From: Eledone cirrhosa
Lineage: Eukaryota
Reading direction: 5' to 3'
Length of the DNA: 64,000 nt
Assembly (NCBI GenBank): GCA_964016885.1
Contig: OZ024756.1
Span: forward strand, 18,848,001 to 18,912,000
Part shown: piece after piece, positions 11,661 to 50,830 of the stretch
Numbering within the stretch: position 1 is the first letter of the stretch
Layout: every line of letters begins with the position of its first letter
Made by a program: the position numbers and the translations under genes
The notes under the pieces: model-generated
What the model was told of the DNA's origin: nothing
What the model saw: the letters and a program-made list of their open reading frames with translations, nothing else
Databases searched by the model: none

Positions 11661-11835
11661 TGAAAAGATTCAGAACCCCGACGGCTGCTTTCCGGCCGTT
11701 TCAACAGCTAAATCAGAACAAACTGTCGAAACGGCCGGAGCTCAGCCGTCGGGGCCCTGAATCTTTTCATATTACCCACTCTACTACCCCAAGTACCGAG
11801 TACTCTGGTGGCTTACTGTTTAGCTGGTTTTTATG
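11661..11835 (+). mobile_element. Fold-back element family A, diverged copy
   Basis: Imperfect hairpin 11661-11769 followed by ATTACCCACTCTACTACCC..AAGTACCGAGTACTC tail; homologous to 13050-13267 in the opposite orientation. Confidence 0.75.
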
Positions 11836-11842
11836 TATACAT

Positions 11843-12097
11843 CGCGCATAGCTTGTTGGTTAGAGCGTCAAGGCTAACAATCCTAAGGTTGTGAGTTCGA
11901 TTCTCGGACGGGCTCAACTGTAAAAATGAGTTGCGACGTCACTGGTGCCAAGCTATATCGGCCATTGTCTTCCCCTTGGACAACATCGGTGGCGTGGAGA
12001 GGGGGAGACTGGTATACCTGGGCGACTGCTGGTCTTCCACAAACAAACCTTGCCCAGACTTGTGCCTCGGAAGGGAACTTTCTAGGTAAAAATCCCT
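11843..12097 (+). mobile_element. tRNA-derived SINE with a distinct 3' body (SINE-C)
   Basis: TAGCTTGTTGGTTAGAGCG (A box) and GAGTTCGATTCTC (B box), then CTCAACTGTAAAAATGAG and a body unrelated to SINE-A or SINE-B. Confidence 0.7.
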
Positions 12098-12319
12098 AGT
12101 GAAGGGAGGGGTGAGTGGAGGGAAGACAGTGAGTGAGAGAAGGCAGTGAATGAGTTATGGGAGGGGGGTGGAAGAGGAGGATGAGTGGAGTTAAGTGTTT
12201 AATGTGTATAGAGAGATAATTGAGGGAGATGAAGCTAACTAGAAGGAGGATGGTGAGGAAGTGAGGAAGGAGAGAAAGAAGAAGTTAAGGGCTTCAAATG
12301 ATGGAAGGGTATTTAGGTG

Positions 12320-12980
12320 GCGTGTGTCTCTGTGTGTGTATATGTGTGTCTGTGTGCTTCAGTGTATGTATGTGTGTGTCTGTGTGTATCTGAGTGCTTC
12401 TCTGTGTATCTGTGTGCTTCAGTGTGTGTATCAGTGTGTTGTGTATGTGTGTGTGTGTGTGTGTCTGCCTGTGTTTGTTTTGTGTATGTGTTAGTGTATA
12501 CGTGTGTATGTGTGTGTGTGTGTGTGTACCAGTGTGTCACTGTGTGTGTGTGTGTGTGTGTGTACCAGTGTGTGCGTGTGTCAGTGTGTATACGTGCTTC
12601 AGTGTGTGTGTCAGTGTATGCGTGTGTCAGTGTGTGTGTGTCAGTGTCACTGTGTGTGTGTCAGTGTGTGTGTATATGTGTATGTCAGTGTTAACAAGTT
12701 TAAAGGGATTTAAGTGTGAAAAGTAGTAATAAAGAGAAATGTGTGTGTGTATGTGTGTATGTTATGTGTATGTATGTGTGTGAGCTATGTGTATGTATGT
12801 GTGTGTATGTGTGTGTGTGTATGTGTGTGTGTGTATGCTATGTGTATGTATGTGTGTATGGTATGTGTATGTATGTGTGTATGTATATGTGTGTGTATGT
12901 GTGTGTGTGTATGCTATGTGTATGTATGTGTGTATGGTATGTGTATGTATGCGTGTATGTATGTGTGTGTGTGTGTGTGT
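12320..12980. repeat. (TG)n/(TGTA)n degenerate microsatellite
   Basis: Direct reading. Confidence 0.9.
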
Positions 12981-13049
12981 TTGCATCTGAGTCTGCGAGA
13001 AAACTAGACATACATAAATCTCAACAGGTATCTCGACTATATATATATA

Positions 13050-13267
13050 TAACGAAGGAAATGTGGTAAGGAACCAGGTGGACCATAACGCACCAAAGTA
13101 CTCAATACTTAGGGTAGTAGAGTGGGTAATAGGAACCAGTAAGACCCCGACGGCTGAGCTCAAGCCGTTTCGACGGCTAATTCTGGACTAATTATGTCCA
13201 GAATTATGTCCAGAATTAGCCGTCGAAACGGCTTGAGCTCAGCCGTCGGGGTCTTACTGGTTCCTAT
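13050..13267 (-). mobile_element. Fold-back element family A (putative Penelope-like 3' end)
   Basis: 80-bp unique tail plus inverted repeat 13129-13267 with arms of about 60 bp; (TA)n on both sides; six copies in the window. Confidence 0.8.
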
Positions 13268-13794
13268 ATATATATTTATATATATATATATATATATATA
13301 TATGTGTGTGTGTGTGTGTGTGTGTGTGTGTGTGTGTGTGTGTGTGTGTGTGTGTGTGTGTGTGTGTGTGTGTGTCCTACTCAGCAATTGATTAAAAAAT
13401 AGTTGGGGCTATGATCAAGGTATACATGTGTGAGTGTGTGTGTGAGTGTGTGTGTGAGTGTATGTATATATATATATATATATATATATATATATATATA
13501 TATGTAAACGATAAACAGAAATAATAAAAATAAAGTACATGAGTGAAAAGTACATAGACGTTCACATGAATACACATACACACACACATACATATATACA
13601 CACACACATACATACATACATACACACATGTATGTATGTAGGTATTGATGTATGTATATATAGATAGTGAGTTATGTATGTATGTGTATTTATGTATGTA
13701 TGTGTATTTATGTATGTATGTATGTACGTACGTATGTAGTGAGGTAAGTATTTATGTATATATGTAAGTATGTAGAAAGGTAAGTTTGTAGGTA

Positions 13795-14592
13795 GATAGA
13801 AGGGTAGATTGGTAGTGAGGTAGGTAGGTAGGTAGGTAGGTAGGTAGGTAGGTAGGTAGGTAGGTAGGTAGGTAGGTAGGTAGGTAGGGAGGTAGGTAGG
13901 TAGGTAGGTAGGTAGGTAAGTAGGTAGGTAGGTAGGTAGGTAGATAGATAGGTAGGTAGGTAGGTAGGTAGGTAGGTAGGTAGGTAGGGAGGTAGGTAGG
14001 GAGGTAGGTAGGTAGGTAGGTAGGTAGGTAGGTAGGTAGGTAGGTAGGTAGGTAGGGAGGTAGGTAGGTAGGTAGGTAGGTAGATTGGTAGGTAGGTAGG
14101 TAGGGAGGTAGGTAGATTGGTAGGTAGGTAGGTAGGTAGGTAGTGAGGTAGTGAGGTAGGTAGGGAGGTAGGTAGGTAGGTAGGTAGGTAGGTAGGTAGG
14201 GAGGTAGGTAGGGAGGTAGGGAGGTAGGTAGGTAGGTAGGTAGGTTGGTAGGTTGATAGGGAGGTAGGTAAGTAGGTAGGTAGGTAGGTAGGTAGGTAGG
14301 TAGGTAGGTTGGTAGGTAGGTAAGTAGGTAGGTAGGTAGGTAGGTTGGTAGGTAGGTAGGTAAGTAGGTAGGTAGGTAGGTAGGTAGGTAGGTAGGTAGG
14401 TAGGTAGGTAGTGAGGTAGTGAGGTAGGTAGGGAGGTAGGTAGGTAGGTAGGTAGGTAGGGAGGTAGGTAGGTAGGTAGGTAGGTAGGTAGGTAGGTAGG
14501 TAGATAGATAGGTAGGTAGGTAGGGAGGTAGTGAGGTAGTGAGGTAGGTAGGGAGGTAGGTAGGTAGGGAGGTAGGTAGGGAGGTAGGTAAG
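13795..14592. repeat. (TAGG)n tetranucleotide array, about 800 bp
   Basis: Direct reading; source of the PTYL-repeat ORFs. Confidence 0.97.
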
Positions 14593-48375: not shown

Positions 48376-48376
48376 A

Positions 48377-48566
48377 CCCTACTGCTGCATTAAGTGTGGC
48401 AGAAACTCGAGTTCGGGAACTACAATAGGTATCCGTTTACGTGTGTTGTACTGAAGCGAATAACTATGTGTATACTCTGGGAGTGTATTAAACATTACCT
48501 ATTGAGTACGCTGAGATGCAACTGGTCCTGGCATTGATACATATGCAGGCTCCGTCAACTTATTAT
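48377..48566 (+). mobile_element. Family G element, 5'-truncated inside hammerhead stem II
   Basis: Aligns to 46439-46630; flanked by (TA)n. Confidence 0.8.
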
Positions 48567-49444
48567 ATATATATATATATATATATATATATATATATAT
48601 ATATATATATATATATATATATATATATATTAATGTTGAGTCAAAAAACTCCCAATATTCCCTTATAATCGAATAAGCTCATGGAAAGAATTCTGAGCTC
48701 TTTATAGTAAAGAGAGAACTACACACATACATGTGTGTGTGTGTGTGTGTTTTTTTTTCTCTTTACTGTGTTTATATATATATATATATATATTTATCTC
48801 TCATATAAAATAATACAACTGGCTATCCGCAAAATACGTATAGTTAGCACCCCAAACGTAAAATTGGGATTATACTAAAGTATATCCTAATGTTTGTTGA
48901 GTGAGACGAAAGCCTGTCGGAGTATTGCTTAAAGCTTTCTCTGTTAATGTATTAAATATATATATATATATATATATATATATATATATACATATATATA
49001 TATAGTATATCGCTTTTCCGTCGAGTAATCCCTGCTGACATGGGTTGGACAGAACTTTTTGAGGCAATCTTTTACAGCTGGAAGCCTTTTCTGATACCAA
49101 CCCTTTTAGTCACTTCGTACGACACACAGAGATACCAGTGTACCTATTCTATTTTAAACTGACGTGTGTGTTTACAAACTGGCGAAAACCAGGAAATACA
49201 TGAAGTAACAAAGCAGAGTGGGTACATTTTAATAAAATCAGAAACTTGTGTCGAAACCATTATGAGGATTCACATTACCAAATGTTCCAACGATTAACGT
49301 GTGTAAATAGAACCCTAATCCTGTAACAATCAAATCTATATAACTAATGGGAAAGTGCGGGATACTCAGCCAAATACACTACAACTCACTGAGTAAACAG
49401 TTCAGTTGTTCGAACAAATAGATTGCCCATCGGACTCTATCTGT

Positions 49445-49482
49445 GTGTTCTGATGAAGGACTAACGTCCGAAACGTTAAGAC
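49445..49482 (+). ncRNA. Minimal hammerhead motif (family H)
   Basis: GUGUU-CUGAUGA-A-GGAC uaac GUCC-GAA-AC GU-U-AAGAC; same stems as 16448-16485 with a different loop II and one stem I mismatch; a decayed relative at 51447-51482. Confidence 0.7.
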
Positions 49483-49699
49483 CCTCTTCCTGCTATATCA
49501 AGCGTTAACATAATATATTCCTTCCATATACTGTCCCGATTGTGTTGTTATTTGTTTACCTTTTACACACACACACACACACACACACACACACACACAC
49601 ACACACACACACACACACACATATGTATATATATATATATATATTAAACATGCCTAAAATACGCACTTCTTTATACATACATTATATATATATATATAC

Positions 49700-49895
49700 A
49701 TAACGAAGGAAGTATGGTAAGGAACCAGATGGAGCATAACGCACCAGAGTACTCAATACTTAGGATAGTAGAGTGGGTAATAGGGAAATGTTTAGCCCCG
49801 ATGTCAGAGCTCAAGCCGTTTCGACGGCTATTTCTGGAGTCCAGAAATAGCAGACGAAACGGCTTGAGCTCTGCCGTCGGGGTTAAACAATTTCA
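49700..49895 (-). mobile_element. Fold-back element family A, nested between 43-bp inverted arms (49644-49686 / 49907-49950)
   Basis: TTAAACATGCCTAAAATACGCACTT and its reverse complement flank the copy. Confidence 0.8.
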
Positions 49896-50691
49896 TATAT
49901 ATAAATATATATTGTATGTATAAATAAGTGCGTATTTTAGGCATGTTTAATTGTCTACATATTTAAAATATGTATATTTATATACACATTTTAAATATGT
50001 AGTCTCGTTTACACAGACTGTATTTATACAAATATAACTTTAACATCTACACACGCGCATAATCTATCCCTGTGTATATGTATGTGCATCTCGTGTCCCT
50101 CCACCCGTCGCTCAACCGATTCAACCAATCCAATACCCTAATAATAATTCTAAACTTGAGCACAAAATACTCAAAATTTGCAAAATCGATAAAATTGACA
50201 ACGATATCTTTTATTGCTCTTTTCGATTTTTTATCAACATCAGCAGGTGAAAAGTTCAGAATGTAAAGGGACGTAACTACCAGCGACTAATTTTTACGTT
50301 ACCGTTTTTAAGAGTAGTCTCCCTTAAATACCTTAAAAATATGATCTGGTCGACAAAGTATTTTGTCTATTTTTACAAGCAGTCTTTGAATTCCTATATT
50401 TCTAATGCCAGTTGTTATTGTTCTTACTATTGTTGCCGTTGTTCCTCTTGTTTTTGTTCTTCCATTATCGGAGTTATGAGGCTTATTTTGCGTTTTGGGA
50501 TGTGGCAAAATTTTTATAAAAATTAAACTAACAAAAATTATTAATAAACACAAACACACTCACCTATATATATATATATACACATACATTCGAATACAAC
50601 ACATACACACATATATATATATATAAATATATATATATATATATATATATATATATATATATATATATATATAAATATATATATATATATA

Positions 50692-50830
50692 TAACGAAGG
50701 AAATGTGGTAAGGAACCAGGTGGACCATAACGCACCAAAGTACTCAATACTTAGGGTAGTAGAGTGGGTAATAGGAACCAGTAAGACCCCGACGGCTGAG
50801 CTCAGCCGTCGGGGTCTTACTGGTTCCTAT
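50692..50830 (-). mobile_element. Fold-back element family A, short form with a perfect 60-bp palindrome (50771-50830)
   Basis: Palindrome centred on GAG|CTC; tail identical to 13050-13128. Confidence 0.85.

Follow-up and report, generated by a model that had tools for sequence, protein, structure and literature searches.

Palindromic stubs of a Penelope-like element in Eledone cirrhosa probably arise by twin priming at two fixed sites

Introduction

A 64,000-nucleotide (nt) stretch of the Eledone cirrhosa genome (GenBank assembly GCA_964016885.1, contig OZ024756.1, positions 18,848,001 to 18,912,000 of the forward strand; hereafter the window) contains six fold-back insertions, which we call family A. 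Each consists of two arms in inverted orientation, one of which ends in a tail of about 80 nt. Judged by the motifs of the parent, these insertions are stubs of a Penelope-like element (PLE) with Hydra-clade features. Twin priming of reverse transcription at two fixed sites, run-off of both cDNAs at the start of a capped RNA and end-joining of the products would together account for family A, and we consider this explanation probable. Six observations bear on it: a parent element, fixed outer ends, arm lengths that are symmetric between the two arms, an inner edge, an extra G at that edge and a second family that replicates the pattern. Coordinates within the element are given relative to the tail end (0), with upstream positions negative.

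Results and Discussion

Family A derives from a Penelope-like element

The six copies begin near window positions 11661, 13050, 38257, 47551, 49700 and 50692, where a preliminary description had placed them, and both arm alignment (scores of 119-218) and BLAST with the 13050 copy as query (E values from 4e-103 to 1e-13) recovered all six. Each is an inverted repeat with the one-sided tail, lying between (TA)n runs. The element is abundant, as one 36-mer from the tail is matched exactly at 15,692 places in the genome. Here and below, genome-wide counts are exact pattern matches in the 3.0-Gb assembly, and bases that were inspected individually come from the first matches only, all on contig C1. 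Three of the first 30 loci continue upstream into a common sequence, and a pattern taken from that shared sequence matches the genome 5,423 times. At locus L089, a stop-free frame of 786 codons (719 amino acids from the first ATG) lies between direct pseudo-long terminal repeats (pLTRs) accompanied by an inverted copy, and self-alignment of locus L090 gives a unit of about 3.5 kb. Partial pLTR tandems with an adjoining inverted, 5'-truncated copy are seen in the self-alignments of both loci and in 117 short head-to-head pairs.

The L089 frame contains RWR at residue 104, DKT at 184, YRDD, CNCPDRSIC (CxCX5C) at 639, IY...YIG, CNLC at 737 and CKH at 765, and lacks G.KF (GxKF). On this motif reading, it is one open reading frame (ORF) for reverse transcriptase (RT) plus a GIY-YIG endonuclease at the C-terminus, and it carries the whole feature list given for the Hydra clade in section 11 of PMC8557442 (an RWK-type motif, DKT, CxCX5C, CxxC, CxH and no GxKF). 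Pfam returned no family for either half of the L089 ORF. Insertion is into (TA)n: a TA run lies at or just past the tail end in 29 of 30 loci, the exception being L026, which is broken inside the tail. At five further loci (L023, L047, L053, L085 and L088), PLE-like RT or GIY-YIG frames of a different type adjoin family A copies.

Outer ends are fixed and either arm can be the longer

Of the 321 alignments made against the parent, 140 stop at 0 and 89 at -79, which is position -80 extended by a T from the TA run. A tailed arm is paired with a tail-less one in 114 of the 117 head-to-head pairs. The same pairing holds for 25 of 26 pairs in a pattern-free sample of 594 kb, which contains 36 tailed arms and is not a genome average because two-thirds of it surrounds the window. 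The tail sits on the short inverted arm in L089 and on the long arm in L090.

Junction mapping retained 108 of the 114 pairs, the other six being in loci selected for long copies, and covered arms of up to about 400 nt. Junctions show either 0-4 nt of overlap or inserts. The tail-less arm is the longer in 41 pairs and the tailed arm in 33, with 34 ties (p = 0.42 for symmetry), microhomology having been credited against the claim of two syntheses; in 10 of the 41 pairs the tailed arm is 39-105 nt shorter. The preliminary description had the tail-less arm copied from its partner by snap-back. A tail-less arm could not be copied from a shorter tailed arm, and therefore snap-back of a single strand cannot give the 41 of 108 pairs; copying in the opposite direction likewise cannot give the layout, since the tail is not copyable from the tail-less arm.

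Haplotypes were compared in 91 pairs with at least 25 comparable positions, 60 of which entered the haplotype test. The two arms of one copy share a haplotype in 59 of the 60, compared with 20% at random, and therefore stem from one RNA or one source. On average, arms diverge by 5.1% within a copy and by 11.0% between copies. Private variants are mirrored once and one-sided 68 times. Variants at 38336-38451 that had been taken for copy-specific changes mirrored in both arms proved to be common subfamily alleles, each present in 40 of 182 arms. At L033:1387-1580 the arms belong to two different subfamily haplotypes (three differences), which points to the use of two distinct template RNAs in a single insertion.

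These data bear on an alternative that we regard as rather unlikely, in which a single cDNA runs off the RNA 5' end, self-primes close to its 3' terminus and is copied as far as the second fixed site, with later central deletions creating the asymmetry. Haplotype sharing in 59 of 60 pairs, the lower divergence within copies, the 33 pairs with a longer tailed arm and the short microhomologies that are common at junctions all suit self-priming, whereas the 41 pairs with a longer tail-less arm, the ratio of 1 mirrored to 68 one-sided private variants and the two haplotypes of L033 do not.

Five junction types occur at least three times, each on several haplotypes, and therefore arose repeatedly. 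The earlier view that the inversion forms at integration, and that it is recurrent and non-random, is supported. A fixed ancestral palindrome spread as a DNA element resembling a miniature inverted-repeat transposable element (MITE) is the least credible origin of all. TA on both flanks, the high copy number and the existence of recurrent junctions could be quoted for it. With the tail on one side only, the outer ends do not form inverted repeats; there is no fixed internal sequence, as junctions vary widely and the recurrent types are each found on several haplotypes; and the sequence is the pLTR of an RT-GIY-YIG element. The parent element, arm pairing and haplotype data together refute it.

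Native stem II is not the main source of the fold-back

In long copies the motifs run in the order ACCCC, YTGANAA, G[A/C/T]TCGGCTA, a loop of about 35 nt, TAGCCGTC, GAAAC, stem III, GUC and GGGGT. Native stem II would thus be formed by G[A/C/T]TCGGCTA and TAGCCGTC behind the YTGANAA core, which lies about 45 nt upstream of the 3' strand of the stem. The minimum-energy structure is a three-way fold, with a z of only 0.41. The predicted stems are paired in 90.6% of cells across 24 long copies, compared with 28-58% when slid, and the ribozyme stems show only one compensatory change among these copies. An Rfam search of the parent element gave no hammerhead match, and the canonical CUGANGA core is found in none of the first 100 long copies listed. 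Most copies have the published U3-A8 variant of the core, and about a quarter of the same 100 combine C3 with A8. The predicted fold shows the three stems around the core, the GAAA and the NUH site of a type I hammerhead, and on this model the family A pLTR holds such a ribozyme with a predicted self-cleavage site. The earlier reading of a retroelement that carries a hammerhead is supported, the predicted ribozyme being of type I, with GAAAC, stem III and GUC.

The same description had assigned the fold-back hairpin of five copies, GACGGCTAATTC...GAATTAGCCGTC, to hammerhead stem II. Among the six copies the literal sequence occurs only at 13050 and 38257; the 49700 copy has a TATTTC/GAAATAG allele, and the 11661 and 47551 copies are older variants (77.6% and 73.9% identical to the 13050 copy, respectively) in which the stem is merely similar. 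If the assignment were right, longer copies should carry CTGANGA next to GACGGCTAATTC. That combination has eight matches in the genome, seven within an unrelated LINE reverse transcriptase and one in a chimera, and therefore the hairpin of the short copies is the inversion itself, with GACGGCTAATTC belonging to the inverted arm.

Snap-back of the cDNA on stem II of the hammerhead itself, the CUGANGA half being replaced by an inverted tail, is accordingly very improbable. Most axes do fall in or just 3' of native loop II, as had been suggested, and complementarity in stem III or GAGCTC is used in about 4 of the 108 junctions, including that of copy 50692. Nevertheless, such a snap-back would retain the native loop of about 35 nt and no junction of the 108 does so or uses native stem II pairing, the arms end 25 nt short of the native 5' strand G[A/C/T]TCGGCTA, and family B, described below, folds 5' of its core. 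Breakpoints are indeed not random; they pile up at an inner edge near A(-139) and not on native stem II. As the main route, the stem II snap-back is refuted by the CTGANGA search, the position of the native core and the junctions. What survives of it is that stem III or GAGCTC supplies an annealing site in those roughly four junctions.

Arm ends pile up at an inner edge, with an extra G at A(-139)

Exact arms reaching -138 number 22,945 genome-wide and those reaching -145 number 4,592, so that about 80% of the former end within 7 nt, and the inner edge spans -138 to -144. Within the first 68 Mb of contig C1, 56 of 83 arms reaching -145 also match the core 45 nt further upstream. The pattern-free sample holds 45 young arms, of which 15 end between -5 and +1 of A(-139) and two extend further. 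A purine precedes A(-139) in 3,644 arms, and is G in 88 and A in 12 of the first 100 listed. Among long copies only 10 show G at this position, and a subfamily allele G(-140) was rejected on this count. Direct transfer of the G from the opposite arm is impossible in 35 of 46 inspected G arms, of which 18 are tail-less, 23 tailed and 5 untyped. The terminal G is about as frequent on tail-less arms as on tailed ones, and seven pairs among the first 100 listed carry it on both, with only 0-6 nt between the arms. Both facts speak against self-priming, and so short a spacer leaves no room for a loop.

Ends at other positions behave differently. G is the rarest base before -138 ends and accounts for 8 of the first 100 listed before -143 ends, so no cap signature is seen at A(-143). 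A minority class of arms stops at the predicted ribozyme cut. Genome-wide, 951 matches have a purine immediately before -98, and inspection of 30 showed 19 true ends (14 A, 5 G) and 11 point variants; at eight loci both arms end exactly at -98 with a spacer of 1-6 nt. This class fits the copying of an uncapped 3' cleavage product, and its lack of G bias means that the bias is not a property of all ends. A(-139) lies inside ribozyme loop II, 29 nt below a variable TATTTAAA and within T[T/C]AGTC, which we take to be an initiator-like word. The m7G cap has been named as the source of an extra G at a cDNA end (PMC4038843).

It is conceivable, at rather long odds, that priming was indeed double and that -139 is instead an RNA cut, the product of a 3' splice site or an RT pause, with the G arising from an untemplated C added by RT. 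In keeping with this, TTTTCATTTAG just upstream looks like a splice acceptor, a 5' intron is present in Penelope (PMC2377424), family A has a variable TATA-like box and untemplated additions are seen at junctions. No constant upstream exon follows the arms, however, and there is no G bias at -138, at -143 or at the predicted ribozyme cut. A further point against it comes from family B, which has the G too, at a YR dinucleotide exactly 30 nt below TATAAATA.

A sister family replicates the pattern

Family B, a sister Hydra-type PLE, is represented in the window by a stub at 47773..47987 (minus strand) that served as a control. Its two arms both stop at A(+1) of CCCAGATTC, which lies 5' of an intact CTGATGA core, and there is a G at 47909. 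Its ORF in locus L129 is 49% identical to the family A protein and its tail measures about 68 nt. TATAAATA stands exactly 30 nt above A(+1), and a YR dinucleotide is found at the start. Family B ends have 2,284 matches, with 76 G among the first 100 listed, and in 15 of 20 inspected cases the G did not come from the opposite arm. Family B folds 5' of its core, and the axis therefore follows the putative start site and not a ribozyme stem. Family B remnants are also present on the minus strand near window positions 55642 and 62900, and L008:1440-1550 holds a chimera in which hammerhead sequence of family B is fused with an arm and tail end of family A. A third hammerhead family, CTGATGAAGGAC...CCGAAACGTTAAG, occurs at window positions 49450 (plus strand) and 16480 (minus strand) and at L140:8739-8792; it shows one fold-back, with its axis about 18 nt 5' of the core and a TA run in the middle.

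A candidate route of insertion

Twin priming at two RT start sites, run-off of a capped RNA within loop II and end-joining are likely on the sequence evidence. By analogy with the anole element PAc in vitro, the two outer ends (0 and -80) would be the RT start sites, and both ends of the cut (TA)n target would each prime a cDNA at one of these fixed sites, 80 nt apart. If A(-139) is the transcription start, both cDNAs would end by run-off at the capped RNA 5' end, with the reverse-transcribed cap as the extra G. Priming at the site copies near the RNA 5' end would give run-off cDNAs of 60 and 140 nt, resembling strong-stop products, while priming in the downstream pLTR of a read-through RNA would give the long copies. 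The cDNA 3' ends would then be linked by end-joining with trimming, microhomology or inserts, and trimming together with microhomology, sometimes from stem III or GAGCTC, would shift many junctions downstream. The minor class would be copied from ribozyme-cut RNA starting at -98. The more general proposition, that PLEs prime twice on a sense capped RNA and most often yield a double run-off cDNA, with the cap G or, less frequently, the hammerhead cut recorded at its junction, seems to us somewhat favored.

Several points weigh against this interpretation. Family A has a weak TATA-like box that varies from one long copy to another, and about 10,000 arms apparently extend to -140 to -144, which may reflect several starts or untemplated A additions mimicking TTT. 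The G could have been obtained from the opposite arm in 11 of 46 family A arms and 5 of 20 family B arms. One set of 20 stretches included seven that were picked because both arms have G; in the first 29 matches, taken without selection, the non-templated bases were 15 G and 5 A. Ends at -98 were counted apart from neighboring positions, and their enrichment over these is not proven. Haplotype sharing in 59 of 60 pairs fits one RNA template but would fit snap-back equally, and later deletions in the palindrome center could shorten either arm. Finally, both the transcription start and the cap are read from DNA only.

Individual copies and other features of the window

Copy 1 (11658..11829, plus strand) belongs to an older subfamily and starts with the inverted tail-less arm (about 11658-11714), followed by a tailed arm with GAAAC, stem III, GTC and a diverged tail. 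Copy 4 (47548..47743, plus strand), of an old diverged subfamily, has the same two-arm layout as the others. The remaining copies are on the minus strand. In copy 2 (13050..13266) the tailed arm, with its tail at 13050-13129, reaches -141 and the tail-less arm -138, and a 16-nt insert at 13188-13203 duplicates junction sequence. Inserts at several other loci are likewise repeats of nearby junction sequence, or are A/T runs of up to about 17 nt, and such inserts are typical of end-joining with templated inserts. The tailed arm of copy 3 (38257..38450) reaches -133 and its longer tail-less arm -139 or -143, a junction found again on other subfamily backgrounds. In copy 5 (49701..49897) the arms reach -137 (tailed) and -139 (tail-less), and the junction base is compatible with an extra G or with 1-2 nt of microhomology. 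Copy 6 (50692..50829) is a perfect palindrome centered on GAGCTC (50798-50803) in the stem III loop, exactly the axis previously assigned to it, and represents a minority junction type.

Elsewhere in the window, a tandem array of 48 units at 47-nt spacing extends from 1982 to about 4500. Inverted repeats of 539 nt, 96% complementary and 3.5 kb apart, lie at 55020-55558 and 59061-59599, possibly another long inverted retroelement insertion. Among the best 150 of 410 rows, an Rfam search of the window gave only microsatellite-driven miRNA noise.

Comparison with known systems

The head-to-head tailed layout is already published, and what is new here is the base-level evidence for a cap G and for run-off. 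In the literature searched, which left most subscription papers outside, nothing linked PLE inversions to twin priming, run-off or a cap G, and the mechanism of inverted tailed insertion is stated as open in PMC8557442 and PMC11167929. Thousands of junctions now yield base-level predictions: a capped start at one base per family in two families, two independent cDNAs and, occasionally, a ribozyme-cut RNA. If these are right, genome sequence alone would map PLE promoters and ribozyme activity, one model would cover the tail, the inversion and the abundance of palindromic stubs, and the route would seed many short genomic palindromes.

Family A resembles described insertions of endonuclease-positive PLEs (PMC8557442; PMC3846280) in its ORF with RT and C-terminal GIY-YIG, its partial tandems with an inverted 5'-truncated copy, its one-sided tail, its pLTR hammerhead and its palindromes at the inverted junction. 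Tails of those elements are usually 30-40 bp, compared with 80 nt in family A and about 68 nt in family B, and, unlike the described insertions, most family A copies lack the ORF and are stubs showing a sharp inner edge plus an extra G. On the basis of junction palindromes, PMC3846280 proposed that Penelope elements prime themselves, arguing for an antisense template but leaving the choice between sense and antisense undecided; in contrast, our data point to a sense, likely capped template and two primings. Penelope itself has an internal promoter (PMC2377424). The likeness to the Hydra clade (PMC8557442), which is one of motifs, comprises RW[K/R], DKT, the CxCX5C linker, the endonuclease CxxC and CxH, the lack of GxKF and (TA)n insertion, whereas Hydra-clade units are below 3 kb as opposed to about 3.5 kb in family A, whose YTGANAA core is non-canonical. 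Schistosoma Cercyon PLEs carry U3-A8 hammerheads (PMC4209133) that are alike in having a UUGANAA core, type I topology and a place in the pLTR. Unlike those minimal hammerheads, family A has a full 6-bp stem III with a GAGCTC loop, and a loop II of about 35 nt holding the putative start.

A biochemical parallel is the anole PAc Poseidon element, for which in vitro work (PMC11167929) describes the tail as the stretch between two RT start sites, and both target strands as cut and extended. Two start sites bounding the tail, an AT-rich target and sites near the ORF start are common to both systems. That study reports no reads ending at the ribozyme cut, whereas some genomic arms of family A end at the predicted cut. 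Twin priming is established for L1 (PMC11702581), where, as proposed here, two cDNAs from two target ends are joined with microhomology or inserts. In L1 the internal site used by the second primer varies and there is hardly any overlap between the two pieces, whereas in family A both start sites are fixed and both cDNAs would span the same stretch, giving a palindrome.

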